From contig JBAZRI010000003.1 in the NCBI GenBank assembly GCA_041662965.1, forward strand, positions 65,331-129,330: DNA of 64,000 nucleotides, in the 5' to 3' direction. The notes below the pieces were generated by a model. That model had not been told where the DNA came from, did no database searches, and worked only from the letters and a program-made list of their open reading frames with translations. This document shows, one piece after another, positions 3,001 to 61,176 of this stretch. Position numbers and translations under genes: made by a program. This stretch comes from Patescibacteria group bacterium. Lineage in GTDB: Bacteria > Patescibacteriota > Patescibacteriia > Patescibacteriales > GWC2-42-12. Positions within the stretch are counted from its first letter, which is position 1. Each line of letters begins with the position of its first letter.

Positions 3001-4044
3001 GTTAATAATCCGGCGGTATAAATCATTTAAGTCTGACGTGGCGAAACGTCCGCCGTCAAGCGGCACCATAGGCCTTAAATCGGGCGGTATAACCGGCACC
3101 ATATTTAAAATCATCCATTCGGGCCTTAAATTATTGGCTCTCAAGCTTTTCAATAATTTTAAACGCCTGATCATTTTATCTTTTTTTGAGTCAATCGCGG
3201 TTAAAAGCTCTTTATCTATAATGGCAATCGTTTTATCCAAATCAATTCTTTCCAAAAGTTTCCTAATGGCGCTGGCGCCGATATCGGCGGTAAAAATATG
3301 CCCGTATTTTAAGCTTAAATTTTGATAAACGCTTTCGGAAATTATGGTTAAAGGCTTTAAGTCTTTTAATTCTTTCTGCGCCTGGTCAAAAGCCTGCTCT
3401 AGATTATTAATTTTGTCATTTTTTATTTTTTCCAAAGATTCAATTTCTTGGCTTAAAATATTGGCAATCTCAAACTCGCTCTTGCCTTGAGTCAGTAATT
3501 TGCCTTTTTTATTTTTAATTTCATTAACCTGCTTTTGCCAATCATTTTCAATGGATTTTCTCTTATTCTTATATTCCTGCTTAATTTGTTCAATGGTGGC
3601 CAAGCATAATTCTTGGTTAACATCGGAAATAATAAAACTGGCGAAATAGACCACTTTTTCTAAAGCCTGCATGGGTAAATCTAAAATTAAGCCGATTTTT
3701 GAAGAAGTGCCGCGCAGAAACCAAATATGGCTTACCGGCGCTTCAAGCTTAATATGCCCCATGCGCTCGCGCCTGACCAAGCTTCTGGTTACTTCCACGC
3801 CGCACCTGTCGCAAATTATGCCTTTATAGCGGATTTTTTTATATTTGCCGCAATAGCACTCCCAATCTTTTGACGGGCCGAAAATACGCTCGCAAAACAA
3901 GCCGTCTTTTTCCGGTTTTTGCGTGCGATAATTAATGGTTTCCGGGCGGATGACTTCGCCGTGGGACCAATGTAAAATTTCTTCAGGTGAAGCTAATTTT
4001 AATTTAATGGCGTCAAAATCGGTGGTCTTTATTGGATTAAGCAT
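100..4044 (-). CDS. rpoC: DNA-directed RNA polymerase subunit beta'
   Basis: 1314-aa ORF with the catalytic NADFDGDQMAVH motif and an N-terminal Zn-finger Cys pattern (CYCGKYKK...CDRCGVEV). Lies directly downstream of rpoB. Confidence 0.97.
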   Translation of the reverse strand: MLNPIKTTDFDAIKLKLASPEEILHWSHGEVIRPETINYRTQKPEKDGLFCERIFGPSKDWECYCGKYKKIRYKGIICDRCGVEVTRSLVRRERMGHIKLEAPVSHIWFLRGTSSKIGLILDLPMQALEKVVYFASFIISDVNQELCLATIEQIKQEYKNKRKSIENDWQKQVNEIKNKKGKLLTQGKSEFEIANILSQEIESLEKIKNDKINNLEQAFDQAQKELKDLKPLTIISESVYQNLSLKYGHIFTADIGASAIRKLLERIDLDKTIAIIDKELLTAIDSKKDKMIRRLKLLKSLRANNLRPEWMILNMVPVIPPDLRPMVPLDGGRFATSDLNDLYRRIINRNNRLKQLIDLNAPEVICRNEKRMLQEAVDALIDNSIRHGKTVVASTGQKRMLKSLADSLKGKQGRFRQNLLGKRIDYSGRSVIVVNPNLNLDQCGLPKRMALELFKPFIISQLINKEIVHNVRSASRYIESGKDEVWDILEDIVKKSYVMLNRAPTLHRLGIQAFKPILIEGLAIQINPLVCTAFNADFDGDQMAVHVPLTEEAIAEARDIMLASHNLLKPATGDPVVAPNQDIVWGAFYITNIDQAYLDADEKKLKNFYSPEDAKLSYSMKNIKLQQKIRAMIDGKLIITTVGRIIFNEVLPPKLRFVNETVGKSKLKNLVKECLRFYGEQPTIDLLDSLKKASFKYITKSGLSWGMDDIPHLYEKDEMLVQASKQAEEISEQYHDGLLTDSERYSKIIELWTTVKEKVTEICRHHLPKDGPVYSMIESGARGSWAQLTQILGMKGLVTSPSGDIIELPVKGNFKQGFSVLEYFIATHGVRKGLSDTALRTSNAGYLTRRLVDVSQDVIIVKDDCGDKEGLLIIKKESEEMGENLVKRMTGRFLAADLKNAKGKVLIKAGELVTEELGEKIAKEDILEVKVRSVLTCKIHRGICAKCYGYDLAYNKKVAIGTAVGIIAAQSIGEPGTQLTMRTFHTGGVAGQEDITQGLPRVEEIFEGRPPKKKAFVADVAGKVKIETAQRTIAGEAGEMIISNPQSKILKIYYQGAESDKYYFTEAVKEASLEDKDNKKKDVKILVKDGAEVVKNSELFAIGKKVFKARKAGVVKLNEKLIKVVSDVEKVKEFIVPKGFGVWVKDGDEVKIGDQLTEGSLDLHQLYQLRGKLEAQKYIIKEIQYVYSSQGQPLNDKHIEIIARQMFARVYVNDAGDTELLPGEIVEKAIFDRTNEEVKAKDKKPAKGEELLLGITKSSLTTNSFLSAASFQETARVLIDAAVTGKVDHLEGLKENVIIGRPIPAGTGYRQKAD

Positions 4045-4069: not shown

Positions 4070-4168
4070 TGTCATTGCGAGAAGCACGTAATCGGGCGAC
4101 GAAGCAATCTCCGGTTAAAATCAGAGTACGTGAGATTGCTTCGCTTCCTTCAGTCGCTCGCAATGACA
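4070..4168. repeat. TGTCAT-headed GC-rich palindromic repeat, two inverted half-units forming a ~99-nt hairpin in the rpoB-rpoC spacer
   Basis: TGTCATTGCGAG...GCGACGAAGCAATCTC is mirrored by GAGATTGCTTCGC...CTCGCAATGACA. The same unit recurs at 12602, 16086, 45290 and 59845. Confidence 0.9.
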
Positions 4169-7200: not shown

Positions 7201-7674
7201 GCCGTAATATTTTTTGCCCTTAACGAATTCCGAAGTGAAAATAACGCCGGCGCTTCTGATCAACTGCGAAACCACGACTCTTTCAATGCCATTGACTATA
7301 AAAGTGCCGTTTTTAGTCATTAAAGGAAAATCGCCTAAAAACACCTCCTGAGTAACGGCTTGGCCGGTTTTTTTATTGGATAATTTAGCCTTGACTCTAA
7401 GCGAAGCTTCATAAGTGATATTTTTAGACTTACTCTCGCTTTCGTCAAATTTAGGCTCGTCCAAATAATAGTCTTCCAAAGACAATTCAAGGTCGCGGCC
7501 GATAAAATCGGTGATCGGAGAAACTTCTTCAAACAAATCTTTGAGTCCATCAGTCAAAAACCAATTATAAGAATCTTTTTGAATTTCAATTAAATCCGGC
7601 AAATCAATCGATGCCTTGGTATCGCTGAAAAATTTCCGGCCGGCTGATTTTATTTTCGTAGTCATAATATTCAA
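4213..7674 (-). CDS. rpoB: DNA-directed RNA polymerase subunit beta
   Basis: 1153-aa ORF with conserved beta-subunit blocks (GEMEVWALEAYGAA, NMQRQAVPL, GRHGNKGV). The true start may be a few codons inside. Confidence 0.97.
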   Translation of the reverse strand: MNIMTTKIKSAGRKFFSDTKASIDLPDLIEIQKDSYNWFLTDGLKDLFEEVSPITDFIGRDLELSLEDYYLDEPKFDESESKSKNITYEASLRVKAKLSNKKTGQAVTQEVFLGDFPLMTKNGTFIVNGIERVVVSQLIRSAGVIFTSEFVKGKKYYGAKVIPNRGAWLEIETDMNDVIWVRIDRKRKVAITSLFRAFGYGADEEIRQLFTEKNELTGGIDGQKSLSGYIEATLAKDAAKNEAEGLKEVYKRIRPGDLATTDNARQLIHSMFFRFDRYDFDRVGRYKMNKRFGQNIPNNKENRVLRREDLIAIVKEIVRLNITQEREDDIDHLGNRRVRAIGELIQNKFRVGLARMERIVRDRMSIMDIDSLTPNKLINARPVISVVKEFFMSSQLSQFMDQTNPLAELEHKRRLSAMGPGGLTRERAGFEVRDVHTTHYSRICPIATPEGPNIGLVGHLASYARLNSYGFIEAPYRVVLHDIANDPAKTLNKIAREDIYEIKGDKKGKLIIKAGEVIDKKTAAELKAKMGHVTIPIVPVLGDEIVYLDAFEEEKYITTPATTPVDANGYFKVLKAEARKYGQPSLEPVEKIDLIGVAPNQIVSVATSLIPFLEHNDGIRALMGTNMQRQAVPLITAEAPIVGTGMEARAATDSGHIILAPDDGEIVKMDGGSIEFKSKKGQTTKYILNKFLRSNASTCINQRPIVNHGDKVKKGDVLTNSSAVDDGELSLGRNVLVAFMSWEGFNYEDAVIISERLMKEDVYSSIHIENYTIDVRDTKLGPELITNDIPNISEEKLKDLDERGVVRIGAEVSSGDILVGKITPKGETELSAEEKLLRAIFGEKAKDVRDSSLYLEHGEHGKVVDIKLFSREDGDKLSAGVIQSIQVTVANLRKIQIGDKMAGRHGNKGVISKVVPIEDMPYLADGTPIEIILSPLGVVSRMNLGQLLETHLGYAAKKLNYKIAVPPLNGISEAQIKEELKKAGLPTNGKVTLYDGKTGEAYDNQVVIGYKYMLKLNHMVEDKMHQRSIGPYSLITQQPLGGKAQFGGQRFGEMEVWALEAYGAAHCLQEILTIKSDDVPGRSKAYEAIIKGEPIRKLNVPESFNVLVRELKGLCLDVELLQGDQVVNLERQGDDKPAEEGERRQNFGEREQR

Positions 7675-7682
7675 TTTATTTC

Positions 7683-7792
7683 ATCAAGTTAAAATTTAAT
7701 GGCCATAGAGCTTGGCTCGCTATTAAATTTTAACTTGATACATTATATTTTTTGAAAATATTAAAAACTTTTTTTGAAAAAGTTTTTAAAGG
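7683..7792 (-). promoter_or_regulatory. Hairpin plus TATAAT cassette (copy 1 of 3) immediately upstream of rpoB
   Basis: 18-bp AT stem (7683-7700 / 7722-7739) around the conserved loop GGCCATAGAGCTTGGCTCGCT. This is followed by a conserved 53-nt block that reads TATAAT on the minus strand and contains the AAAAACTTTTT/AAAAAGTTTTT palindrome. Copies at 10749 and 61051. Confidence 0.6.
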
Positions 7793-7912
7793 TTAAAAAA
7801 CAAAAAAACCCCAACCAGTTTTTTAATAGCTGTGAGTTAACGCGGAATATTTAATTAATGAGATAAGTCTTCACTTATTTTAGTTTTAAAATATGAACAG
7901 GATATTTTATCG

Positions 7913-7940
7913 CCCCCTTTGAACAAAGGGGGTTAAGGGG
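7913..7940. repeat. Small GC-rich palindrome plus G-run (CCCCCTTTG-AA-CAAAGGGGG-TTAAGGGG)
   Basis: Perfect 9-bp inverted repeat followed by a GGGG tail. Same architecture as the in-ORF elements at 8777, 44541 and 54365. Confidence 0.7.
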
Positions 7941-8030
7941 ATTTTATCTTTTTGATAACAAAAAAACGGCCAGTTTATACCTTTCCATCCTGCTTGTTAC
8001 TGCTTTGACGGAGCCGTTGAGTTTTTATTC

Positions 8031-8056
8031 TGTCATCCCCATATAACCGGGGACGT
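8031..8056. repeat. TGTCAT-headed mini-palindrome (TGTCATCCCC...GGGGACG)
   Basis: Shares the TGTCAT head with the other sub-families. A similar unit is at 45272. Confidence 0.6.
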
Positions 8057-8311
8057 AGAATGAGTTTTATTATGTATCAATTTTTAGCTTGTTGAAAACT
8101 TATTAAATACTAACAACAATCATTAGGCTTGTCAAGGGTTTTCGGTTTAAATTTTATAAAATTACGCAAGCCTATTTAATTTACTTTAATTTTAGCCATA
8201 ATACATAATTTTTTTATTATATCAACATACTGGAGGGCATAATTATCCACAGGTTAGACACGAAGGAAATAATTTTTCAAATTAGTGTTATAAAATATAA
8301 AATTGTTATTT

Positions 8312-9742
8312 TTATTTTTCCAACTCCTTCAATTCCTCCTTCACCACCTCCCTGTCATCCCAAGGAATTTTTACGCCTTCGGGCCCGCAAATAGCCTGCT
8401 CGCAGCCTTTGCCGGTAATTAAAACCATATCGCCTTCGCCGGCCAAAGACAAAGCTTTTTTAATAGCCGCGCGCCGATCTTCAATTTTAAATAAATTTTC
8501 ATTTTCTTTTTTGCCGGCGTTTTTCGCTCCGACCGCCACCTGATCAATAATTAATTTCGGATCGTCGTCGTAAGGATCTTCGTTGGTTACGATTACTATA
8601 TCGGCTTTTTCTCCGGCCAAGGCTCCGAGCTTCGGCCGCCTAGCAACGTCGCGCCCGCCCCCGGCAGAGCCTATTACATGGATTATTTTACTATGCTCTA
8701 ATTTTAAAATAGTGCCGTATATTTTTTTTAAAGCCTCAGGCTCAAAAGCATAATCAACTATAACCGTAAAGCTTCCCCCCTCTCCTTTAAAAGGAGAGGG
8801 GCGGGGTGAGGTTATCAGCTCCAGCCTGCCGGGAATGCCATCAATTTTTTCCAAACCGATTTTTATTTTTTCCAAATCCACCCCTTGGCTAAGCCCTAAA
8901 CAAACCGCGGCCATGGCGTTAGCCGCGTTATATTCGCCCAATTGCTTTAAATTTACTACTGCCTCATCTTTTACTTTAAAACTCACGCCATTTTGGCTTG
9001 ATTCAATATTGCCATATTTTACAATCTGCGTTTTATCATCCGCCGGCTTGGCTTTTAATTCGCCTTTGGCATATTGCCACTTTTCTTCAGCCCAAAAAGA
9101 CAAAAAGAAATCAGCATATTTGTCATCGCCGTTAGCGATAATGGTTTTTTTAACCCGGTTAGACTCTATTTTCTTAAAACCATTTTCAGTTTTAACCACT
9201 CGCTTTTTATCATCGGCATATTTTGTTTTGCCTTGTTTTAAATGAAAAAATAATTTGCCTTTAGCCTGCTTATAGTTGGCAAAACTGCCGTGGGCTTCAA
9301 TATGCTCGGGATAAAGGCCGGTAAAAATTAAGATGTCGTAATTTATAAATTTGTGGCGGAATTGTTCAATGCCTTGCGAAGTGGTTTCAACGATAGCGTA
9401 TTGGCAGTTATTTTTTACCATTTGTTTTAGCATTTTTTGGGTAAAAAACCTGCCGGCCATGGTCATTTTTTTGTTATTCAGCCATTCGCTTCGGCCGTCA
9501 TTAAAAATAGCCGTTGAGGTAAAGCCGGTTTTATAGCCGGCCGAAGCCAGCATTTTAGAGATTAAATAAACGCTGGTGGTTTTACCGGTTGTGCCGGTTA
9601 CGCCGATAACGATAAGTTTATTTGACGGCCAGCCGTACCAAGCAGAAGCAATCAGGCTTAATAAAAAATGATAGGCCGGTTGTAGGGCCTTAAATAACTT
9701 TGTGGGTATATATTGTTTAATTATGTGCAGTAATTGTTCCAT
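8312..9742 (-). CDS. Mur ligase family protein (MurE-like UDP-MurNAc-peptide ligase)
   Basis: 476 aa with the P-loop GVTGTTGKTT, central and C-terminal Mur-ligase blocks (VDYAFEP), and a FemAB neighbour. Which amino acid it adds cannot be told from sequence. Confidence 0.8.
   Translation of the reverse strand: MEQLLHIIKQYIPTKLFKALQPAYHFLLSLIASAWYGWPSNKLIVIGVTGTTGKTTSVYLISKMLASAGYKTGFTSTAIFNDGRSEWLNNKKMTMAGRFFTQKMLKQMVKNNCQYAIVETTSQGIEQFRHKFINYDILIFTGLYPEHIEAHGSFANYKQAKGKLFFHLKQGKTKYADDKKRVVKTENGFKKIESNRVKKTIIANGDDKYADFFLSFWAEEKWQYAKGELKAKPADDKTQIVKYGNIESSQNGVSFKVKDEAVVNLKQLGEYNAANAMAAVCLGLSQGVDLEKIKIGLEKIDGIPGRLELITSPRPSPFKGEGGSFTVIVDYAFEPEALKKIYGTILKLEHSKIIHVIGSAGGGRDVARRPKLGALAGEKADIVIVTNEDPYDDDPKLIIDQVAVGAKNAGKKENENLFKIEDRRAAIKKALSLAGEGDMVLITGKGCEQAICGPEGVKIPWDDREVVKEELKELEK
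8777..8811. repeat. GC-rich palindromic element inserted in frame inside the Mur ligase ORF
   Basis: CCCCTCTCCTTT-A-AAAGGAGAGGGG followed by CGGGGTGAGG. Translated on the minus strand as ...TSPRPSPFKGEGGS.... Near-identical element at 44541. Confidence 0.85.
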
Positions 9743-9767: not shown

Positions 9768-10739
9768 TTAAAACGTTCTTCTGGCTTGCCTGACCATTTT
9801 ATAAATACTGTACCAATTTTGATCAAAAATATAATCAAACGTTCCCGGATAATCATGCTCAAAGCCGCCAAAGCCTTTTTTAAATCTGGTTACTCCCGGC
9901 CACCTTTTTTCATTAATGCCGCATAAATCATAATATTTGAAACCCGCGGCTTTAACTTCTTTAATTATTTGCCAATGAAGCAAATAAGGCGCCATGACTT
10001 CGCGATCATGATCGGCCGAAGCGCCGTGCAAATAAGAAACCGTATCGCCGAAATAAGAAAAAATACCCGTAACTAACGGCTTGCCCTTATATTCGGCAAA
10101 ATACAGTTTTATAAAATCGCTGTCCGCTTCCAGCATTTTTTTGTAATAATCTATGCCGTGCGGGCGAAAATTATCCCGCTCGCCGGTTAAATTCATTAAT
10201 CGCCAAAAATCATCAAAACGCTCCGGCCCGGCTTCGACCATTTTTACTTCTTTTTTGGCCGCAAGTTTTATATTATACCTGGTTTTCTGATGCATCTCTT
10301 TCAATAATTCTTCTTCCGATTTGGTTAAATCTAAAATCAAGGTTTTGCTTGGCTGAATATCAAGAGTTTTCTGGATTTCTATCGGAGAGATATCAATCTT
10401 AAAAACCGGCTCAAAGCGAAGGAAAATCACATCTTCATTTTCCGCGAATTTTTTCAGCGCGTCAAATAATTCTTTTAAAATTTTTAATTTATCCTGATTG
10501 GCCCCGATAATCGGCCCGCGCGGGCATAAAAAATAACTCTTGCCCATGGGCAAGGTTTTTTTGACAAAAGTGGCCGCGGCCGCCAATTCATTATTCTCCA
10601 AAACGCCTAATCTGATAATTTTCCCGGCCGCCTTGCCCTGGAATTCCCCCCATTCAAACGATTGCAAAAACTGGCTCATAGTCTCTCGGCTAACAAAATC
10701 ATTCAGCTGTTTTTTGTCTGTGATAGTGATTATTTGCAT
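9768..10739 (-). CDS. FemAB-family peptidoglycan bridge aminoacyltransferase
   Basis: 323 aa with a FemAB-like N-terminus (FLQSFEWGEFQ) and overall family pattern. Adjacent to the Mur ligase. Confidence 0.75.
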   Translation of the reverse strand: MQIITITDKKQLNDFVSRETMSQFLQSFEWGEFQGKAAGKIIRLGVLENNELAAAATFVKKTLPMGKSYFLCPRGPIIGANQDKLKILKELFDALKKFAENEDVIFLRFEPVFKIDISPIEIQKTLDIQPSKTLILDLTKSEEELLKEMHQKTRYNIKLAAKKEVKMVEAGPERFDDFWRLMNLTGERDNFRPHGIDYYKKMLEADSDFIKLYFAEYKGKPLVTGIFSYFGDTVSYLHGASADHDREVMAPYLLHWQIIKEVKAAGFKYYDLCGINEKRWPGVTRFKKGFGGFEHDYPGTFDYIFDQNWYSIYKMVRQARRTF

Positions 10740-10748
10740 ATTATATTT

Positions 10749-10858
10749 ATCAAATAAAAATTTTATGGCCGTAGGGCTTTGCCCGCTATAAAATTTATAT
10801 TTGATACATTATATTTTTTGAAAATATTAAAAACTTTTTCTAAAAAAGTTTTTAAAGG
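10749..10858 (-). promoter_or_regulatory. Hairpin plus TATAAT cassette (copy 2 of 3) between the ruvA stop and the FemAB-family start
   Basis: Different AT stem (10749-10766 / 10788-10805), conserved loop GGCCGTAGGGCTTTGCCCGCT, and a distal block (10806-10858) nearly identical to 7740-7792. Confidence 0.6.
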
Positions 10859-10859
10859 C

Positions 10860-11438
10860 TTATTTACCTAACTTTTTTAAAGCTTGCCTGATTCTTTCGC
10901 CCGAATCTTTAATTTTAGCGTCAACATTATTTAAAGCTTCCCGCGCTTGCGAAAGAGAATAGCCTAAAGCCATTAGCGCGTCAATCTCGTCGCTTGAGCC
11001 TAATTGGCTGCCGCCGGGCAGACCATCGCCAAAATTTAATTTGCCGATTTTTTCTCTTAATTCTAAAACCACCCTTTCCGCGGTTTTACGGCCGATGCCG
11101 GAAACCTTGGTTAAGAGCGCCGGATCGCCGCGGCCGATTGATTCTTTAATATCCGCTACTGTGGCGATGGACATAGCTCCTAAAGCCGATTTCGGGCCGA
11201 TGCCGGAAATGGAAAGCAATAATTCAAATAATTCCAGCTCTGCCGTACTTTTAAAACCGTATAAATTCAAAGCGTCTTCGCGCACCTGCTGATACGTATA
11301 AAATTCAATCTCTTGATTAAGGTTTAAGTCAACATAAAGCAAGGGCGAAATAAAAACTTGATAACCGATATTATTTACTTCAAGTATCACAAAACCCTGG
11401 CCTTTATGCTTAATTTTTCCTTTTAAATATGAGATCAT
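10860..11438 (-). CDS. ruvA: Holliday junction branch migration complex subunit RuvA
   Basis: 192 aa with a typical RuvA N-terminus (MISYLKGKI...) and HhH motifs (SGIGPKSA, VSGIGRKTAERV). Confidence 0.9.
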   Translation of the reverse strand: MISYLKGKIKHKGQGFVILEVNNIGYQVFISPLLYVDLNLNQEIEFYTYQQVREDALNLYGFKSTAELELFELLLSISGIGPKSALGAMSIATVADIKESIGRGDPALLTKVSGIGRKTAERVVLELREKIGKLNFGDGLPGGSQLGSSDEIDALMALGYSLSQAREALNNVDAKIKDSGERIRQALKKLGK

Positions 11439-12601: not shown

Positions 12602-12645
12602 TGTCATTGCGAGAAGCCTGTAATCAGGAGACGCGGCAATCTCAC
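12602..12645. repeat. TGTCAT-headed repeat, single half-unit
   Basis: TGTCATTGCGAGAAGCCTGTAATCAGGAGACGCGGCAATCTCAC, followed by the GCCTGCCGGCAGGC palindrome at 12665-12678. Confidence 0.8.
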
Positions 12646-14571: not shown

Positions 14572-14619
14572 TGTCATTCCCGCGTAGGCCTGCCTGCCCG
14601 GTAGGTAGGCGGGAATCCA
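14572..14619. repeat. TGTCAT-headed repeat, TGTCATTCCCGC...GCGGGAATCCA sub-family
   Basis: TGTCATTCCCGCGTAGGCCTGCCTGCCCGGTAGGTAGGCGGGAATCCA. A related unit is at 45334-45360. Confidence 0.8.
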
Positions 14620-14665: not shown

Positions 14666-16072
14666 TCAGGCGGAAAATTTATCCCTGAAAAAATTATCCA
14701 AATCAGCTATTTTAACTCTCGCCTGTTCCATAGTATCGCGGTCGCGCACCGTTACGTCGCCTTTTTCCAAACTGTCAAAATCAACGGTTAAGCAATAAGG
14801 CGTGCCGATTTCATCCTGCCGGCGGTAGCGCTTGCCGATATTGCCGTGATCGTCAAATTCGCACATGTAATTAATTTTTAAATTTTTATAAATCTCTTTG
14901 GCTTTTTTAACCAGTTCCGGCTTATTTTTTAAAAGCGGGAAGATGGCGATTTTAATTGGCGCCAAATGCTTAGGAAATTTCATAACCACTCTAATTTCGC
15001 CTTTAACTTCTTCTTCAGAGTAGGCAAAATCAAGGAACATCAAAAGTAGCCGATTGAGTCCGACTGATGTTTCCATAATATGCGGAATAAATTTCTCGCC
15101 GGTTTTTTCATCGGTATAATTGAGTGGAACGCCGGAAAATTTTGCATGCTGGCTCAAATCCCAATTGCCTCTGGCGTGGATTCCTTCAACCTCGTCAAAT
15201 CCGCCGAATATTTTAAAATCGTACACAATATCGTAAGCCTCGGAAGCGTAATGAGCCAGTTTTTCGTGTTTAAACCATTTTATTTTATCCGCCGGAATGC
15301 CATTGGCTAAATACCACTGCCATCTTAAATCTTTCCACATTTCGTATTTCTCTTTCATCATGCTGGGATGGAGAAAATATTGCATTTCCATTTGCTCAAA
15401 TTCCCGCGTCCGAAAAATAAATTGCCGCGCTACAATTTCGTTTCGGAAAGCCTTGCCAACTTGGGCGATGCCGAACGGCAGTTTTTTATGGAGTGAATCG
15501 ACCGTATTTTTATATTCCAAATATATGCCGCCACAAGTTTCCGGCCTTAGATACACAACATTTTCTTCTTTTAGCTCTTCGGTCGGAGAACCGATGTTTG
15601 ATTTCACCATCAGCGAAAATATTTTCGCGTCGGTTAATTTATCCGAACCGCAATTAGGGCATTTTAACTTCTTCTTCTCCCGAAGTTCGGTCAAATGCTT
15701 ATTAATTTCTTCTAAAGTGGCTTTATCCGCTTCAATCCCGTAATTTTTCAGCAAATGATCCGCCCTAAATCTGTTTTTGCAATCTTTGCAGTCAATTTGA
15801 GGATCATTAAAACCGCCCACGTGCCCGGAAGCCACCCAGGTTGTCGGATGCATAAAAATCGCGCTATCAAGGCCGACAACATCATCCCGCGTTTGAATCA
15901 TGCTTTTCCACCACGAATCACGGATATTATTTTTTAACAGCGTTCCATAATGGCCATAATCATAAATCGCCGCCAAGCCGCCGTAAATTTCCGAAGACGG
16001 ATACACAAACCCCCGCCGCTTGCATAAAGAAGCGATTTTTTCCAATGTTGTGTTATCCTTTTTATTTGCCAT
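14666..16072 (-). CDS. glyQS: Glycine--tRNA ligase (dimeric class II GlyQS type)
   Basis: 468 aa with a typical N-terminus (RRGFVYPSSEIYGG) and class II motifs. Confidence 0.9.
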   Translation of the reverse strand: MANKKDNTTLEKIASLCKRRGFVYPSSEIYGGLAAIYDYGHYGTLLKNNIRDSWWKSMIQTRDDVVGLDSAIFMHPTTWVASGHVGGFNDPQIDCKDCKNRFRADHLLKNYGIEADKATLEEINKHLTELREKKKLKCPNCGSDKLTDAKIFSLMVKSNIGSPTEELKEENVVYLRPETCGGIYLEYKNTVDSLHKKLPFGIAQVGKAFRNEIVARQFIFRTREFEQMEMQYFLHPSMMKEKYEMWKDLRWQWYLANGIPADKIKWFKHEKLAHYASEAYDIVYDFKIFGGFDEVEGIHARGNWDLSQHAKFSGVPLNYTDEKTGEKFIPHIMETSVGLNRLLLMFLDFAYSEEEVKGEIRVVMKFPKHLAPIKIAIFPLLKNKPELVKKAKEIYKNLKINYMCEFDDHGNIGKRYRRQDEIGTPYCLTVDFDSLEKGDVTVRDRDTMEQARVKIADLDNFFRDKFSA

Positions 16073-16085
16073 ATTATTAACTCCC

Positions 16086-16208
16086 TGTCATTGCGAGGAG
16101 CGAATTAAGCGAAGCGTAATGAGCGACGCGGCAATCTCCGGTTCAATGGCATATACGTTGATTTTTACCAGAGATTGCTTCGCCATGAGTACATGGCTCG
16201 CAATGACA
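16086..16208. repeat. TGTCAT-headed repeat, two inverted half-units (long hairpin)
   Basis: TGTCATTGCGAGGAGCG...GCGGCAATCTC is mirrored by GAGATTGCTTCGCC...GCTCGCAATGACA, located upstream of glyQS. Confidence 0.85.
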
Positions 16209-29892: not shown

Positions 29893-30627
29893 TTAAAACT
29901 TAACTAACGCCAAACAACCGTTAACCGGCGTTTTCGCTTCAGCTATGTCTATGCCATGGCTTTTTTTATTTATTCTTAATTCGGCCTGCCCGCTCTTGAA
30001 TAAAAAATCATATTTGTTTTCCGCAACTATTTTTCTAACAAATTTAAGACCGTTGCCCCGGCTTTCCGGCGCCCGCCCGGATATTATTTCGGTAAAAGCC
30101 ATTTTTACCGCGTCTTGATCATCTTTTAAATCTGGCCTGACCTTTCTTAAGGTAGTTAAAACTCCCTGGCCTCGATCGGCAATCGCCAATTGCCGGTTAT
30201 TAAGATTATAGATAAAAAACACCCCCGGAACATCCGGCCAGTTGCCGAGATTGTGGTCATAGGCATTATTGCCGATTTCTCCGACGACGGAAGTAATTAA
30301 AGAAAACCTGTCTTGCAGAATGCCGGATTTAATAAGTTCGGTTTCCAGCCTTGACAGCCGCGCCTGAAAAATTGAACTGTTGGGACAGTAAAAATCGGCC
30401 AGAGGTTCAACGGCTGTATCGCCGCTTGCCCATTTTAAAGCCAGTTTATAAATATCCAAATTAGGCATCAATTCGGCCAATAAATTTCTGTCATAGTATC
30501 TATGCCCGGAGCTTTTAAGGCGAACCGCCGGCAATTTTCCGCTTTTATCCCAGCGGCGAAGCGTATCTAGAGAAACTCCTAATATTTGCGTGGCCTGATT
30601 AATTGTTATTAACTCTTTATTTTGCAT
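29893..30627 (-). CDS. MerR/excisionase-type HTH fused to a GHKL (histidine-kinase-like) ATPase domain
   Basis: N-terminal HTH (ITINQATQILGVSLDTLRRWDKSGKL). C-terminal N-box-like EIGNNAYDH, and G-boxes DRGQGV and GNGLKFV. Confidence 0.65.
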   Translation of the reverse strand: MQNKELITINQATQILGVSLDTLRRWDKSGKLPAVRLKSSGHRYYDRNLLAELMPNLDIYKLALKWASGDTAVEPLADFYCPNSSIFQARLSRLETELIKSGILQDRFSLITSVVGEIGNNAYDHNLGNWPDVPGVFFIYNLNNRQLAIADRGQGVLTTLRKVRPDLKDDQDAVKMAFTEIISGRAPESRGNGLKFVRKIVAENKYDFLFKSGQAELRINKKSHGIDIAEAKTPVNGCLALVKF

Positions 30628-30657
30628 AATAGTATTATACCTTATTTTTTAAAACTA

Positions 30658-30796: not shown

Positions 30797-31273
30797 TTAA
30801 AAATTTTTGATGAGCGCGATTTCCTTGCAGTCTACTGACCCCGGTACGGCGATATTGCGCGGACAGCGGATACAATCTGTCCACATTTTTTTAGGCAGCA
30901 TCTCCATGCCAACTTTTTTAAAACCGTGCTTTTCAAAAGTATTAGGGCGTAAAGTTAAAGTGTAAACTATTTTTATGCCCAGATCCTCTATCCTCTCCAT
31001 CACTGCCGAAATTAGCATAGAGCCTATGCCGTGATTAAAATATTTTTTATCCACAACCCAAGAAACTATTTCCGCTTTTTCATCTTCACCGATTTTAAAA
31101 GCCACGCTGCCGGCAAATTGGCCATCATAGTCAGCCGCCAAAAAATTCGGCAACATGACCGTTAGCTCGGCTCTGCTTTTTGGCAGAAGCAACTCTTCCT
31201 TAGCATAGAGCTTGATTAAATCGTGAATTTTTACTATATCACTAACTACCGCTTGTCTAATTATTATTTTCAT
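30797..31273 (-). CDS. GNAT acetyltransferase of the short ArgA-like (COG1246, N-acetylglutamate synthase-like) type
   Basis: 158 aa. The N-terminal IRQAVVSDIVKIHDLIKLYAKEELLLPKS pattern, the GNAT core, and the C-terminal KMWTDCIRCP...C motif are typical of this subfamily. AGGAG RBS. Confidence 0.65.
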   Translation of the reverse strand: MKIIIRQAVVSDIVKIHDLIKLYAKEELLLPKSRAELTVMLPNFLAADYDGQFAGSVAFKIGEDEKAEIVSWVVDKKYFNHGIGSMLISAVMERIEDLGIKIVYTLTLRPNTFEKHGFKKVGMEMLPKKMWTDCIRCPRNIAVPGSVDCKEIALIKNF

Positions 31274-31513: not shown

Positions 31514-31789
31514 AAAAAACCTCGTCTTCAAATAGAAAAAATTCTATTCAAGGACGAGGTTATTTAGTCTCGTGGTACCACCCTGATTCCCCAATTTTAT
31601 TATCGGAGCGCTCATTAAGCTATTTGCCCGCGGTAGCAAACCGCTCCGGCCTACTTAGGTTCAGCCGGCAATCTCCGGAAGCGCGTTCAGCATTACTGGC
31701 CTGCCGGGCTCGCACCATTACCCGGCTCGCTTAGAGGCTTAAATATTGCTTACTATTTTCCTTCAATGATTAGGTTGATTTTTAAGATC
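31514..31789 (-). promoter_or_regulatory. T-box riboswitch leader (specifier most likely CGC, Arg) with a terminator/antiterminator
   Basis: T-box sequence AATCAGGGTGGTACCACGAG (31569-31588). Stem I AG-bulge AGCGA and distal loop GGTGCGA. AGTA S-turn and GAA-CGC-G specifier loop. Terminator CCTCGTCC...GACGAGG plus T6 (31514-31559). Confidence 0.8.
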
Positions 31790-37780: not shown

Positions 37781-37880
37781 AATTGGGCTAAATTTGTAAA
37801 ATTTTCGTACGAGGACTGTTTGAGCCCGAGTACTCTCGGGCGAGTTCCGCAGTAGAAAATTTAATAAATTTAGCCCAATT
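37781..37880. repeat. Conserved-core / locus-specific-stem hairpin, family B copy 1
   Basis: Outer stem AATTGGGCTAAATTT.. and conserved arms TTTTCGTACGAGGACTGTTTGAG / CGAGTTCCGCAGTAGAAAAT around the central hairpin CCCGAG-TACT-CTCGGG. Confidence 0.8.
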
Positions 37881-38535: not shown

Positions 38536-40239
38536 TTACTCCGCTACTCTGAATATTTCTTCAACGGATGTGATGCCGTCAAGCGCTTTTAAAAGCCCGT
38601 CCTGGGCCATGGTAATCATGCCGTTTTTCTTGGCGTTATCGCGCATGTCATATTCGCTGGCCGCGCCGCCTAAAATTAATTTTTCAATTTCCTTATTCAT
38701 GGTTAAAACTTCATAAATGCCGATTCGCCCTTTATAGCCGATGCCTTGGCAAGTTTCACAGCCCTGGCCCTGAAAAAATTTTAAATTGTTAAAATCAATT
38801 TTTTTCTTGTCTTCTTCCAAAAGCTCGCCTAAAAGGCTTTTCACTCTGTCTAAAACTTCGTCTACCAATTTTATTTCCTGCTTGCATTTCTGGCAAATTT
38901 TTCTAACCAATCTTTGCCCAAGCATGGCGTTTAAAGCCGGCGCCAATAAATACGGTTTAGTCCCCATGGATAAAAATCTTGGCACCGTGCCGGCCGCGTC
39001 GTTAGTATGGATAGTGGATAAAACCAAATGGCCGGTTAAAGCGGCTTGAATGGCGATTTCCGCCGTTTCTAAGTCGCGGATTTCGCCAACCATGACAATA
39101 TCCGGATCTTGGCGCACGATTGAGCGCAGCCCTTGGGCAAAAGTATAATTTTTACTGGCTTGCGATTGGTTTATGCCGGCGAGCTGATATTCAATCGGGT
39201 CTTCAATGGTTATGATTTTAGTTTCTTGATTATTTAATTTTTTAAGTATGGCGTAAAGCGTGGTGGTTTTGCCCGAACCGGTCGGGCCGGTAGTAATAAT
39301 CATGCCGTTAGGCCGCTCAACTTCTCTTTTTAACTGATCAAAAGCTCGGTCGCGGATGCCTAAATCAGTAAATTCCAAACCAACGGCGCTGGAACGCAAT
39401 AAGCGCATAACCACGCTTTCGCCGAAATTAGTGGGTAAAAACGAAACCCTGATATCAATGCGGTCATCTTTCATGTAGATTGACAGCCGGCCATCCTGGG
39501 GCTTATCCGTAATATTTATTTTTACCGCGGCTAAAAGTTTCATGCGGGAAATTATTTTATCCCAAGACGATTTATCTAAACTGGCCACGTCATGCAAAAC
39601 GCCGTCAATCCTAAACCTGACCTTTATTAATTTTTCTTCGGCTTCAATATGGACATCCGAAGAGTCTGATTTTACGGCCGCGGCCATGATCATGGTGACG
39701 ATTTCGGTAATTTGCGCCCGGCTTATCTCGGCCTGCAAATCCTTAAAGCTGGAAAATTTTTCTCCATATTTATTTAATTCTTCTTCCGTGATTTTAATGC
39801 CCCTGACGACTTCCCTGACTTTTGGCATGGTTTTATACATCTCTAAGCCGAAATTGAAGCTATTCTCGGTGATTAAATAAATGCTGACCTCTGAAAAATA
39901 TTTTTCTGATAAACTTTTAGCCAAAGCCTGCACTTTTTCATCTTGGGGCGCTAAGCTGGCTAATTTAATATTTTTGCCGTCATAATAAAAACACAGCGTT
40001 TCCAGCGCCTTAACCTCCTCTTCATTAATTAAAATTAAAGCTTCCGGGCTGATAGGAAAACCGAATAAATCAACATAAGGCAAGCCGGCGCCATCCGCCG
40101 CCTGTTTGGTTAAACGCTCCAGCTCTTTTATTTTCAGCTTTTTTTCTTTAACTTTAAACTTAGCCGCCGCGCTTTCATCGTTAACGTCCTGCCCGGCGGC
40201 GCTACTGAATAAATCATTGATGGATTGGTTGTTTGGCAT
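38536..40239 (-). CDS. Type II/IV secretion system ATPase (GspE/PilB family)
   Basis: Walker A GPTGSGKTTT, Asp and His boxes, and a C-terminal tetracysteine (CQKC...CETC). Confidence 0.9.
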   Translation of the reverse strand: MPNNQSINDLFSSAAGQDVNDESAAAKFKVKEKKLKIKELERLTKQAADGAGLPYVDLFGFPISPEALILINEEEVKALETLCFYYDGKNIKLASLAPQDEKVQALAKSLSEKYFSEVSIYLITENSFNFGLEMYKTMPKVREVVRGIKITEEELNKYGEKFSSFKDLQAEISRAQITEIVTMIMAAAVKSDSSDVHIEAEEKLIKVRFRIDGVLHDVASLDKSSWDKIISRMKLLAAVKINITDKPQDGRLSIYMKDDRIDIRVSFLPTNFGESVVMRLLRSSAVGLEFTDLGIRDRAFDQLKREVERPNGMIITTGPTGSGKTTTLYAILKKLNNQETKIITIEDPIEYQLAGINQSQASKNYTFAQGLRSIVRQDPDIVMVGEIRDLETAEIAIQAALTGHLVLSTIHTNDAAGTVPRFLSMGTKPYLLAPALNAMLGQRLVRKICQKCKQEIKLVDEVLDRVKSLLGELLEEDKKKIDFNNLKFFQGQGCETCQGIGYKGRIGIYEVLTMNKEIEKLILGGAASEYDMRDNAKKNGMITMAQDGLLKALDGITSVEEIFRVAE

Positions 40240-40274
40240 AATTACATTATAACTTATTTTTTCAATAAAAAAAA

Positions 40275-43524: not shown

Positions 43525-43624
43525 GATTGGGCAAGGCTTATTTAATTTTCGTGCGAGGACTGTCTGAGGCCGAGCAATCTCGACCGAGTTCCGCAGTAGA
43601 AAATTAAATAAGCCTTGCCCAATC
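43525..43624. repeat. Conserved-core / locus-specific-stem hairpin, family B copy 2
   Basis: Outer stem GATTGGGCAAGGCTTATTTAATTTTC / its complement. Same conserved arms as 37781. Central hairpin GGCCGAG-CAAT-CTCGACC. Confidence 0.8.
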
Positions 43625-45271: not shown

Positions 45272-45360
45272 TGTCATCCCCGCCCCGTTTGTCATTGCGA
45301 GCGACCAGAGGGAGCGAAGCAATCTCATTTATTTGTCATTCCCGCACAGGCGGGAATCCA
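45272..45360. repeat. Three different TGTCAT-headed units in tandem
   Basis: TGTCATCCCCGCCCC, TGTCATTGCGAGCGACCAGAGGGAGCGAAGCAATCTC and TGTCATTCCCGCACAGGCGGGAATCCA. Confidence 0.85.
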
Positions 45361-53277: not shown

Positions 53278-54576
53278 TTAAAATAAACTTCTTTGTTTGT
53301 TTTTTTCTTTTTCTTGTTCGCTGAAAATTTTAATTTCTCCGTATTGCCCGTCAAAGCCAGGCTTGATGATTAAATTGCCTTGGCGCGCCCGCTTTACGGC
53401 CTCGGCTATTGCCGGATCGGTTATAGCCGTTAAATCTTTTAGGCTAATATTTAATAAAATATTAAGCTCGTTAGCTCCTGATTTTATTAAATTATTATAC
53501 GCTGACCGCACTCTTTTTGAATACCTTGATTTAACGTCTAAAGCTTCGGCGATTATTTTATCAAGCTCAACTAATTTAATAAACGGCGCAGCCGATAAAG
53601 GTTTAAAGCCTAAAGGTCGGTCAGCCAGTTCGTCAACTCGGTTCATCACGCCGATAGTTAAAGATTTTTTGCAAACCGGACAAATATTTTTATGTTTTTT
53701 AGTTTGTTCCGGAGTAAAGCTTACGCCGCAGGCGCGATGGCCGTCATAATGGTACATGCCTTCTTCCGGATAAAATTCTATAGTGTATTTAATGCCGGCG
53801 GCGCCATTCTGAGAAATTTTTTTATTTTTAATAATATCATAAATTTCATCATAGTTGATAATTTTCATCTCAAACACATTGGCTTCGCGCGCGATATTCG
53901 GTAAAGAATGAGCGTCGGAATTGGAAAGCACGGTTAATTTATCCAAAGCCGATAAGCGCCAATTCATCTCCGGGTCGCTTGAAAGTCCGGTTTCTATGGC
54001 GTAAATATTTTCCGTATACTCGTGAAAGCATTCTTCCATTTTATCAAAGCCTGATTTTGAACCGAAAACCGCGAACCACGGCGTCCAAATATGCGCCGGA
54101 TAAATTAAAAATCTTTTATCAATCCCTAGGCACAATTTCATTAAAGTCGGGGCGCTCATGCCTAATATCGGCCGTCCGTCCGAGCGAATATTATATTTTT
54201 TATCTAAAAAATTATTTAATTCCTCAACCGCTTTTATGTTGGGCGCGTGGATTACTAAGTGAATGCGCCTGGCTTTGCCCCCGTCTTTATAAATTAAGGC
54301 TACTTCGGTTGATAAAATAAATTTTACCCTATCGTCTTTAGCGCTTTTTAGTTTATATAGCCCGGCTCCTCCTCCTGGCAAGGGGGAGCTAGAGGGGGTT
54401 ATTTCTTCCAATTTATTTTTTATATCGGAAAACCAAAGAGGATAAGTAAAATCACCGGTAGCGATTATATCAACGCCCTTAATTCGGCAGGCGGCGTCAA
54501 TATTTTCCAATGTCAGCTCCGGCGAGCAGGAGCGGGAATATTTAGAATGGATATGTAAATCTAAAATTTGCTGCAT
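53278..54576 (-). CDS. PHP-domain protein, endonuclease Q-like
   Basis: N-terminal LDLHIHSKYSRSCS PHP motif and an internal CPVC zinc-ribbon-like motif. 432 aa. Confidence 0.6.
   Translation of the reverse strand: MQQILDLHIHSKYSRSCSPELTLENIDAACRIKGVDIIATGDFTYPLWFSDIKNKLEEITPSSSPLPGGGAGLYKLKSAKDDRVKFILSTEVALIYKDGGKARRIHLVIHAPNIKAVEELNNFLDKKYNIRSDGRPILGMSAPTLMKLCLGIDKRFLIYPAHIWTPWFAVFGSKSGFDKMEECFHEYTENIYAIETGLSSDPEMNWRLSALDKLTVLSNSDAHSLPNIAREANVFEMKIINYDEIYDIIKNKKISQNGAAGIKYTIEFYPEEGMYHYDGHRACGVSFTPEQTKKHKNICPVCKKSLTIGVMNRVDELADRPLGFKPLSAAPFIKLVELDKIIAEALDVKSRYSKRVRSAYNNLIKSGANELNILLNISLKDLTAITDPAIAEAVKRARQGNLIIKPGFDGQYGEIKIFSEQEKEKNKQRSLF
54365..54398. repeat. GC-rich hairpin plus G-run inserted in frame in the PHP/EndoQ-like ORF
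   Basis: GCTCCTCCT-loop-AGGGGGAGC followed by TAGAGGGGG. Translated as ...PSSSPLPGGGAGLY.... Confidence 0.6.
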
Positions 54577-54597
54577 AAAATATATTATAATATACCT

Positions 54598-54692
54598 AAA
54601 AATTCCGCAAATAATAGTAAATTTTCGTGCGAGGACTGTTTGAGGACGCCATTAGGCGGACGAGTTCCGCAGTAGAAAATTTGCTGTTATTT
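54598..54692. repeat. Conserved-core / locus-specific-stem hairpin, family B copy 3
   Basis: Outer stem AAAATTCCGCAAATAA.. / its complement. Conserved arms TTTTCGTGCGAGGACTGTTTGAG and CGAGTTCCGCAGTAGAAAAT. Central CGCC-ATTA-GGCG. Confidence 0.8.
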
Positions 54693-59844: not shown

Positions 59845-59880
59845 TGTCATTGCGAGGAGCCTCAGCGACGAAGCAATCTC
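59845..59880. repeat. TGTCAT-headed repeat, single half-unit, directly upstream of glmS
   Basis: TGTCATTGCGAGGAGCCTCAGCGACGAAGCAATCTC. Confidence 0.8.
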
Positions 59881-60880: not shown

Positions 60881-61050
60881 CGTAAATTGTTATTTAATCA
60901 GCATAACTCAATAATTTATTATTGTCAATAATTTTTCTACAATAATATAATATAATAAAATAAATAGCTTAAATTAGCTATTTATTTATAATATACTTGT
61001 CAACTAATATAACTACAATTATAAAGTTATCCACAGTAAAAGGCATTATA

Positions 61051-61176
61051 GTTTTATTAAAATTTTTGGCCGTAGAGCTTTGCTCGCTAAAAATTTTAAT
61101 AAAACACATTATATTTTTGGAAAATATTATTTATCCCCGTAGGGGGAAAACCTTTTTTGAAAAGGTTTTTAAAAAC
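61051..61176 (-). promoter_or_regulatory. Hairpin plus TATAAT cassette (copy 3 of 3), downstream of the 5S rRNA
   Basis: Stem 61051-61067 / 61089-61105 and loop GGCCGTAGAGCTTTGCTCGCT. The distal block carries an extra CCCCGTAGGGG palindrome. Confidence 0.55.

Follow-up and report, generated by a model that had tools for sequence, protein, structure and literature searches.

The window, that is, the whole 64-kb stretch of Patescibacteria DNA analysed here, carries three copies of a cassette of ~110 nucleotides (nt) at the coordinates given in the first-pass annotation of this DNA. The cassette comprises two hairpins, and its element strand is the minus strand of the window, on which its parts follow one another in the order upstream stop codon, hairpin A, linker, hairpin B, short A/U spacer and AUG. 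The neighbours of the three copies likewise all lie on the minus strand, namely, rpoB (copy 1), ruvA followed by a FemAB-family gene (copy 2) and the 5S/23S rRNA genes (copy 3). The earlier assignment of rpoB, the FemAB-family gene and 5S rRNA as neighbours holds, but the placement of copy 3 upstream of a small open reading frame (ORF) needs correction: no ORF is found directly downstream of this copy, and the nearest small one starts 170 nt off. The 21-nt loop consensus occurs in the window only at 7701-7721, 10767-10787 and 61068-61088, compared with 0.02 matches expected by chance, and both the TATAAT block and an A/T palindrome are present exactly three times, at the same places as the loops. 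Three weaker covariance-model matches (at 24255, 51179 and 40261) were dismissed as not belonging to the family. Every copy in the window folds, on either strand, into a much more stable structure than shuffled sequence does (z = -4.7 to -7.8). The parts of the copies and the features flanking them are listed below in the direction of the element strand, P2 being a 4-bp mini-hairpin within the apical domain of hairpin B.

8107..8135, minus strand: context of copy 1, canonical promoter (TTGACA-17-TAGTAT, TG present) located ~360 nt before hairpin B
~7800-7830, minus strand: context of copy 1, terminator-like hairpin and U run, which come after the promoter and a non-coding leader
7761..7792, minus strand: copy 1 hairpin A with the conserved 5' flank CCU, supported by covariation in the family
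7761-7789, minus strand: copy 1 stem of hairpin A, UUAAAAACUUUUU / AAAAAGUUUUUAA, closing a loop of 3 nt
7740..7760, minus strand: copy 1 AU-rich linker UAUUUUCAAAAAAUAUAAUGU, 21 nt, unpaired in the consensus fold
7742-7747, minus strand: copy 1 TATAAT hexamer inside the linker, a proposed cleavage site or weak -10
7683..7739, minus strand: copy 1 hairpin B, 18-bp stem in which 7683-7700 pairs with 7722-7739
7701-7721, minus strand: copy 1 apical domain AGCG-GAGC/CAA/GCUC-CUAUGGCC
7663..7682, minus strand: copy 1 spacer of 17 nt without a Shine-Dalgarno (SD) motif, then the rpoB ATG (7665-7663)
10860-10862, minus strand: ruvA stop codon, at the edge of copy 2
10827..10859, minus strand: copy 2 hairpin A (10827-10855) with its 5' flank
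10806..10826, minus strand: copy 2 AU-rich linker, TATAAT at 10808-10813
10749..10805, minus strand: copy 2 hairpin B, 18-bp stem with one mismatch
10767-10787, minus strand: copy 2 apical domain, P2 being GGGC/GCCC
10737..10748, minus strand: copy 2 spacer AAAUAUAAU, 9 nt, then the ATG of the FemAB-family gene
61147..61173, minus strand: copy 3 hairpin A variant AAAACCUUUU / AAAAGGUUUU, with C-G to CC-GG compensation; it starts ~20 nt past the 3' end of 5S rRNA (61196)
61130..61146, minus strand: copy 3 extra GC mini-hairpin module CCCCCUACGGGGAUAAA, the same module being present at other loci
61106..61129, minus strand: copy 3 AU-rich linker, TATAAT at 61108-61113
61051..61105, minus strand: copy 3 hairpin B, 17-bp stem in which 61051-61067 pairs with 61089-61105
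61068-61088, minus strand: copy 3 apical domain

Hairpin A is A/U-rich, spans 13 bp and conforms to the consensus UU(A/G)AAAACUUUUU-nnn-AAAAAGUUUU(U/C)AA. This is the adjoining block, AAAAACTTTTT-N3-AAAAAGTTTTT, that had already been recognized in the first-pass annotation, which missed, however, that the block is itself a covarying 13-bp hairpin. The linker between the hairpins is AU-rich and single-stranded, 20-21 nt in length (AAAAAAUAUAAnGU / UAUUUUCAAAAAAUAUAAnGU); covariation was looked for in a potential AUAUUUU/AAAAUAU pairing inside it, and none was found. Hairpin B includes 17-19 bp, nearly all of them A-U, and is crowned by an apical domain conserved in sequence, AGCG-[P2]-CUAYGGCC, which is laid out as A-GC-G[P2]C-UACG-GC-C, with UACG forming a bulge. 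Optional GC mini-hairpin modules (CCCCnnnnGGGGAUAAA) are accommodated at two insertion points in the linker region and add ~19 nt each. RNAalifold, when applied to unfitted sequences, independently recovered both hairpins and left the linker unpaired. At one locus (L130), hairpin A is absent.

A search for the loop consensus in further genomes, extending the genome-wide search suggested in the first-pass annotation, brought to light a family of at least 153 distinct copies in pooled genome and metagenome scans, with covariance-model scores of 60-107 bits, hosted by ~18 or more low-GC Patescibacteria (Falkowbacteria/Parcubacteria-like) MAGs and by metagenomes. The genome scan, in which each species was represented by one genome and the loop pattern was used as the query, returned ~50 true copies, after ~70 of the 120 matches in the genome collection had been dropped as stem-less chance matches in high-GC genomes; the metagenome scan, with P2 left free, contributed at least 115 further loci. 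The hosts recovered in the genome scan are low-GC MAGs labelled Patescibacteria, Parcubacteria, Falkowbacteria or simply 'bacterium'. Several host MAGs are labelled 'uncultured Gammaproteobacteria', a label contradicted by their content and GC of 30%-45%, and a protein neighbouring the cassette in one MAG has homologues named Falkowbacteria, Parcubacteria or Patescibacteria. Copy number reaches at least eight per genome, a lower bound, in three MAGs. The four matches in IMG/VR proved to be stem-less chance matches in GC-rich contigs, and with no true viral copies among them a viral origin was rejected. Searches of Rfam with the whole window at gathering thresholds matched only 23S and 5S rRNA and, elsewhere, a T-box, leaving the cassette unmatched, whereas Rfam 15 matches to the region 7600-8350 at E-values up to 10 were confined to far-sub-threshold hairpins resembling miRNAs or sRNAs. 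The loop sequence was not found in the full-text literature searched, and a literature search on Parcubacteria promoters and leaderless topics returned nothing relevant.

In a megablast comparison of the window with the other loci, the sole matches beyond rRNA and a few genes are the cassettes, which are 85%-91% identical over 120-135 nt; at the locus most closely related to the window (L083), coding DNA is 74%-80% identical. The cassette is among the most conserved non-coding sequences of these genomes, above protein-coding DNA, and its 85%-91% identity, compared with at most 74%-80% for coding DNA across MAGs, points to strong purifying selection. The element is real, structured and strongly conserved; it belongs to a Patescibacteria lineage and had not been described before.

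Covariation was counted in 113 copies aligned with the covariance model. Standard pairs occupy 97.7% of the cells, 22 of the 24 pairs show both-side changes (322 cells in total), none of 500 shuffles matched the observed values, and sliding the partners by 1-3 columns lowers pairing to 28%-53%. Strong covariation is seen in both hairpins as well as in P2. The covariation of the mini-hairpin had been noted from the window, but the 'one compensatory pair' described there understates what is seen in the family, where P2 takes the forms GAGC/GCUC, GGGC/GCCC, GAGU/ACUC, GGAC/GUCC and GAAC/GUUC and, in four copies, is swapped for GC hairpins of 6-7 bp, with AGCG and CUAYGGCC remaining unchanged. Hairpin A is near-perfect in 118 copies and displays both A-U to G-C and C-G to CC-GG compensation. 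As for hairpin B, the stems do pair within each copy in the window, but they do not differ completely, as had been claimed, since copies 1 and 2 agree at 14 of the 18 positions of the stem; in the family as a whole, frequent variation is limited to 5-7 of the 18 pairs, and the rest are nearly fixed as A-U. The helices are maintained across homologues by compensatory changes, as in a structured cis-acting RNA element.

One observation leaves room for a DNA-level reading. In none of the three helices is G·U favoured over A·C: the counts are 17 G·U against 19 A·C for hairpin B, 1 against 5 for hairpin A and ~6 against 5-8 for P2, an atypical pattern for an RNA structure under selection on a single strand. 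The cassette could be read as a palindromic repeat (a REP, a MITE or a single-stranded-DNA hairpin), the hairpins of which would form in DNA, be it on the template of the lagging strand, in an intermediate of transposition or recombination, or in a similar setting, with gene boundaries being merely tolerated insertion sites. The presence of some inverted copies, the GC mini-hairpins, which behave as modular insertions, and the multi-copy nature of the element, with assemblies breaking at copies (e.g. at L055), are also compatible with this reading. In Correia elements of Neisseria, REP/BIME and BOX, the inverted-repeat arms are conserved, either orientation is found and the elements move within a species. 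The cassette resembles these repeats in being a multi-copy intergenic element of ~100-150 nt with RNA hairpins, some of the repeats also carrying -10-like boxes or undergoing RNase III processing.

The placement of the cassette relative to genes, nevertheless, is difficult to reconcile with a DNA-level repeat. Of the 153 elements, 81 are flanked by co-oriented ORFs on both sides and a further 46 by a single one within 150 nt. Co-orientation with a callable neighbour is seen in ~90%-95% of copies, which agrees with the minus (coding) strand favoured earlier as the functional orientation; only ~5-6 copies (~4%) are inverted with respect to both neighbours. In the inverted copies, it is the outer end of hairpin A that faces the next ATG, at a distance of 7-9 nt upstream of it. 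The upstream stop codon is most often located 52-55 nt before hairpin B, that is, at the cassette edge, 1-5 nt before the cassette, and the base of hairpin B most often lies 8-12 nt before the ATG, which places hairpin B in the 5' leader of the downstream gene, as had been supposed. The distances to stop and start codons are precise, the 8-12 nt to the start codon being observed in half of the copies (77/153). Positions are orthologous across species, e.g. before thrS and before the 'MLPEKW' and 'MKLPFKF' genes. Furthermore, stems differ within one genome while the flanking 53-nt block is identical, the opposite of what copying followed by drift would produce, and there are no terminal inverted repeats, target duplications or viral copies, nor was a transposase seen nearby. 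Unlike in Correia, REP and BOX elements, the arms covary and the loop is the conserved part, while ~95% of copies have the same orientation and different species have them at orthologous positions. A mobile repeat of the REP/MITE type was therefore rejected on account of the compensating arms, the fixed loop and flank, the nearly uniform orientation and the lack of visible flank duplications, and we regard the DNA-level reading in general as improbable.

Two further classes of hairpin-forming element were considered. TIGR-Tas systems of CPR bacteria produce stem-loop tigRNAs, in which box C (RUGAUGA) and box D (CUGA) flank two variable spacers inside the hairpin (bioRxiv 10.64898/2026.09.09.750476; PMC12045711). 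The interior of the cassette hairpin is instead an invariant stretch of 21 nt with no box C/D motifs, and cassettes, unlike tigRNAs, occur as single units at gene starts; identity with tigRNAs was rejected. The same applies to integron attC sites: the hairpin bases are AUCAA...UUGAU, the R''/R' core sites (GTTRRRY) are lacking and the flanking genes are housekeeping ones.

As anticipated from the window, the element is common to unrelated genes. Those located downstream of it include genes for RpoB, a FemAB-family protein and ribosomal proteins S12, S7, L25, L33, L6, L19, L35 and S6; SSB, NusB, the epsilon subunit of ATP synthase, HPF and ThrRS; as well as an MraY-like transferase, glycosyltransferases and an epimerase. 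Cassettes are found at the junctions S12-S7, S8-L6, IF3-L35, AtpD-AtpC and S6-SSB, all of which are operon-internal in model bacteria. Placements around stable RNA genes include positions before 23S rRNA, between 23S and 5S, after 5S and after tRNA, and at two loci (L160 and L195) the cassette is followed by a canonical terminator and no ORF.

The spacers between hairpin B and the start codon are characteristic in that U occupies position -1 in 91% of copies and SD-like motifs are found in only 2 of 138. Within the window, 5 of the 43 genes have an SD motif. A hairpin located 8-12 nt before every AUG is not a rule of the genome, being found for only about one-third of genes. The idea that these lineages lack an anti-SD sequence comes from the literature (PMC9297842). 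The 16S rRNA of a cassette-bearing relative, however, ends in GGAUCACCUCCUUUCU, so that this idea, and with it the notion of the cassette as a replacement for SD pairing, was dropped. A search for complementarity between the loop and 23S rRNA, 5S rRNA or the 5' part of 16S rRNA gave nothing consistent.

The first-pass annotation had interpreted the cassette as a portable promoter followed by a 5' hairpin. An elaborated version of this reading, in which hairpin A and the U-rich tract terminate upstream transcription, TATAAT or the overlapping TAAnGT serves as an internal -10 element and hairpin B forms the new mRNA 5' end, appears to us rather unlikely, although several observations speak for it. 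TATAAT is perfect in all three copies in the window, and a T-A-x-x-x-T pattern is conserved in the family: in a sample of 45 copies that had not been selected on the TATAAT block or linker, the shifted register TAAnGT has its first T, the following A and its last T in 39, 43 and 37 copies, respectively. As in a sigma-70 promoter combined with an intrinsic terminator, a TATAAT-like hexamer and an A-tract, hairpin and U-tract come in the right order, and the order hairpin A, -10 and hairpin B is right in ~95% of copies. Some copies lie behind canonical terminators or the end of an rRNA operon, where a restart promoter would be needed; several cassettes follow an apparently genuine terminator, for instance, after 5S rRNA and in L105. 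Elsewhere in the genome, TATAAT-N6-ATG starts look leaderless, so that promoters dominated by the -10 element may exist.

The architecture of the cassette itself, on the other hand, speaks against a promoter. The -35 region on the minus strand, already flagged as poor, turned out to be missing altogether, as was a TG extension: the promoter scan did not call the cassette TATAAT, and the sequence located 17 nt upstream of it is AAGTTT, even though these genomes are rich in canonical promoters of the form TTGACA-N16-18-TAnnnT. Only 2 nt separate the end of the hexamer from a stem with covarying outermost pairs, and a normal start site ~7 nt past TATAAT would fall inside this stem and remove 4-7 nt of the 5' arm of hairpin B. 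When the unselected copies are read in the TATAAn register, no more than 24 of the 45 end in T, and the most conserved linker bases in this sample are the A-run (45/45) and the G at -2 (42/45) rather than the -10 positions. The sequence upstream of the hexamer changes where the GC mini-hairpins are inserted, and as these occupy two points there is no fixed upstream promoter geometry. Nor does hairpin A make a convincing terminator: it was not called in the terminator scan and, with one G-C pair in 13, is expected to terminate poorly. The cassette thus departs from the sigma-70 promoter and terminator pair in having no -35 element and no G+C-rich stem, in the hexamer abutting a covarying stem and in its location downstream of T-box terminators.

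The last of these features is particularly informative. In two species (loci L084 and L126), a stop codon is followed by a canonical promoter, a T-box leader, the T-box terminator, the cassette and, after 11-13 nt, thrS; the T-box was matched by Rfam with E = 9e-6, and its sequence and terminator are aligned at high posterior. Because the cassette is located between the T-box terminator and thrS, transcription from the upstream promoter must read through it, and since T-box control of thrS requires RNA polymerase to pass, hairpin A is no efficient terminator there. A constitutive promoter within the thrS cassette would bypass the riboswitch, whereas a terminator in the same place would defeat it. 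A similar series, in which a canonical promoter is followed by a short leader (containing a GC hairpin and a U run), the cassette and the gene, is found for copy 1 in the window and for L112 (23S), L085 (L19), L109 (L35) and L115 (S12). The cassettes that separate 23S from 5S, or genes known to be co-transcribed in model bacteria, also stand against a terminator-promoter arrangement. Our conclusion is that the cassette is transcribed, as part of a leader or as intercistronic RNA, and may have weak promoter activity at most. The lack of a -35 element, the start site in a covarying stem, the operon-internal copies and the T-box-thrS loci indicate that the earlier annotation was probably wrong about the promoter; about the hairpin and its orientation it was right.

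What a transcribed cassette might do is suggested by its architecture, in which an AU-rich single strand between the two hairpins and an invariant G located 2 nt before hairpin B would fit an RNase processing site of the T7 R1.1-like or RNase Y/E type; an AU-rich single strand between two hairpins is a classical layout for endonucleolytic processing. We tentatively favour, with a probability of roughly 45%, a model whereby the cassette is an mRNA punctuation or insulator element that is cut in the linker, leaving hairpin A to protect the 3' end and hairpin B to cap the 5' end. The cassette would be transcribed together with the flanking genes and would mark the boundary between two expression units; upstream of it lies an ORF stop codon, an attenuator or T-box terminator, or an rRNA or tRNA. 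The cut would be made by an endoribonuclease within the AU-rich linker, beside the A-run that never varies and the G that precedes hairpin B by 2 nt, whereupon hairpin A might protect the new 3' end of the upstream RNA, whereas hairpin B, almost without a 5' overhang, might cap and thereby stabilize the new 5' end of the downstream mRNA and insulate the unstructured, SD-less AUG region from the upstream sequence. Cleavage after attenuators would remove the leader, and the model also fits the copies around rRNA and tRNA genes. Cleavage, stabilization and protein binding are thus what we infer from the sequences of the family.

The apical domain, invariant apart from the replaceable P2, looks like a protein-docking internal loop or bulge and, within the insulator model, could be the docking site for the nuclease or another RNA-binding protein. 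The same property is open to a different interpretation, which we consider unlikely, namely, that the cassette is the operator of a post-transcriptional regulon, in which the apical domain would bind a trans-acting protein or the ribosome, with no obligatory cleavage, and binding would coordinate the translation or stability of housekeeping mRNAs (those for RNA polymerase, ribosomal proteins, cell-wall genes and thrS). Invariance of the apical domain alongside covariation of P2 is what a protein-binding internal loop or bulge typically shows. Together with a fixed distance to the AUG, spacers devoid of SD motifs and an enrichment of the downstream genes in translation, transcription and envelope functions, this would suit an operator. 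Such a role, however, does not account for copies located before 23S and 5S rRNA, after 5S rRNA or tRNA, or before no ORF, leaves the conservation of hairpin A and the linker unexplained, and comes without a candidate protein.

To return to the punctuation and insulator model, we find it possible but doubtful that the cassette, in its more specific form, is a natural insulator employed across this Patescibacteria branch, with the linker being cut either by a dedicated nuclease acting on the apical domain or by the RNA itself; that the RNA is a self-cleaving motif is by itself very improbable.

Intercistronic RNase III signals are known from the early mRNAs of bacteriophage T7 (R1.1 and others), and operons processed by RNase Y or RNase E with a protective 5' hairpin include cggR-gapA in Bacillus subtilis and saePQRS in Staphylococcus aureus. 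By analogy, it is these systems, operons with 5' stabilizer hairpins among them, together with engineered insulators, that the cassette would seem to work most like. It shares with the T7 and RNase Y/E signals the location of hairpins between co-transcribed cistrons, variable helices and a conserved internal loop or bulge. In those systems, cleavage leaves hairpin-protected ends while the genes stay one transcription unit, and the equivalent step in the cassette is our proposal. The cassette differs from them in having two hairpins around a conserved AU-rich linker and an invariant 21-nt apical domain, and in its fixed position 8-12 nt from an SD-less AUG, in the chromosomes of a candidate phylum. 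Hairpin B finds parallels in the 5'-terminal stabilizer hairpins of the ompA 5' untranslated region in Escherichia coli and of the aprE and ermC leaders in B. subtilis, as well as in the synthetic insulator RiboJ, which make expression independent of the upstream sequence. Here, too, a stable stem-loop would be located at or close to the 5' end of the mRNA and a short distance before the translation start, although for hairpin B, unlike for these hairpins, the 5'-terminal position is predicted. Whereas the latter are single-gene or engineered devices, the cassette is a natural multi-copy family with a sequence conserved across species.

The cassette precedes core genes of Patescibacteria (CPR bacteria), including rpoB, thrS, many ribosomal protein genes, cell-wall genes and rRNA genes. 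If it is indeed a processing or insulator module, it would make mRNA maturation and SD-independent initiation accessible to concrete tests in an uncultivated phylum, add a new RNA family to genome annotation (and one that also breaks assemblies) and supply synthetic biology with a compact natural part. Should the insulator model be correct, every gene served by the cassette would receive the same hairpin-capped 5' end and the same SD-less start context, whatever lies upstream, amounting to a general way of maturing mRNAs and of presenting start sites independently of SD motifs in this phylum. On a more practical note, the hexamer in the linker illustrates how promoter calling in an AT-rich genome can be led astray even by a perfect TATAAT.

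Besides the cassette, the ~110-nt two-hairpin element, the window harbours a second repeat family, present in seven copies on both strands. The copies are listed here together with the other repeats and signals considered below.

Repeats and sequence signals in the window (coordinates, strand, feature)
4159-4168 and 16199-16208, plus strand, second repeat family, CGCAATGACA ends
59845-59854, 45290-45299, 16086-16095, 12602-12611 and 4070-4079, minus strand, second repeat family, CGCAATGACA ends
54661-54675, 43585-43599 and 37841-37855, minus strand, third repeat family
45334-45343 and 14572-14581, minus strand, short GC hairpin, GGGAATGACA
45272-45281 and 8031-8040, minus strand, short GC hairpin, GGGGATGACA
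8135-8107, minus strand, canonical promoter TTGACA-17-TAGTAT
~7800-7830, minus strand, terminator-like AAAAAACUGGUUGGGGUUUUUUUGUUUUUU
8243-8251, 31047-31055 and 61027-61035, plus strand, perfect DnaA box, TTATCCACA
40237-40251, 30625-30639 and 54574-54589, minus strand, TATAAT-N6/7-ATG at an annotated gene start

Members of the second family consist of GAGATTGC(TT/CG)CG, 13-31 variable nucleotides and CYCGCAATGACA, and an ATG often follows 5-25 nt downstream, examples being rpoC and two genes whose starts lie at 16072 and 59836. The GA-rich flanks are conserved around a variable centre, whereas the cassette displays the opposite pattern; k-turn hairpins and stem-loop tigRNAs are candidates for comparison worth testing. 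The third family (AATTTTCTACTGCGGAACTCG...CTCA(A/G)ACAG) lies within long hairpins located upstream of genes or at the gene start. The window also contains short GC hairpins, related to one another and ending in AUGACA(A/G)A, three of which form a tandem array directly 5' of a probable ATG near 45262.

Several hairpin modules also occur in a non-coding stretch of 520 nt (7793-8311, minus strand) that separates a Mur ligase gene from the cassette copy preceding rpoB. This stretch, for which Rfam yielded no match, encompasses the canonical promoter and the terminator-like sequence listed above, and probably represents either a small RNA or a long leader or attenuator of rpoB. It also holds one of the three perfect DnaA boxes, and another lies 15 nt downstream of the cassette copy that follows the 5S rRNA gene, so that two of the three adjoin cassettes.

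The three TATAAT-N6/7-ATG arrangements suggest leaderless mRNAs in this genome. An SD-like 4-mer at positions -20 to -4 precedes only 5 of the 43 genes of the whole window (background, 6%), and a U stands directly before the ATG in 32 of them. In a cassette-bearing relative, the 16S rRNA nevertheless retains the canonical anti-SD (GGAUCACCUCCUUUCU; L240, 12960-12976). Given the scarcity of SD-like motifs, translation initiation seems to be largely SD-independent, although the anti-SD is intact.

Outside the window, two cassette loci carry divergent T-box leaders upstream of thrS (L084, 5406-5617, minus strand; L126, upstream of 3387-3475). With 33.5 bits against the 93 bits that Rfam sets as its gathering threshold, these fall far short, yet both the T-box sequence and the terminator are plainly recognisable. 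By comparison, the T-box of the window itself (31547-31775, minus strand) reaches 115 bits. T-boxes of these lineages are probably under-annotated. Several cassette-carrying MAGs (L002, L009, L015, L021, L022, L026 and others) are labelled 'uncultured Gammaproteobacteria', but their GC of 30%-43% and Patescibacteria-type content indicate that these labels are probably wrong. Contig ends fall within hairpin B of the cassette at both ends of L055 (contig CAZPEL010000040.1) and at the start of L086; the cassette is a repeat at which metagenome assemblies break.

In L112 (3291-3457), immediately 5' of the cassette preceding the 23S rRNA gene, a canonical terminator stands ~120 nt beyond a perfect TTGACA-16-TATAAT promoter. 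This unit may correspond to a small RNA, to a leader peptide (MIKILILTRLKSG) or to an attenuator. Between cassette and 23S there is a second promoter-like site, TTGACA-17-CAAAAT. In L070 (422-662 and 811-885), a group I intron adjoins the tRNA-Pro gene, after which the cassette stands. Insertions and introns are known in CPR rRNAs, and the 23S rRNA of L174 (117-4219), ~1.5 kb longer than that of L112, suggests by its length an insertion or intron.
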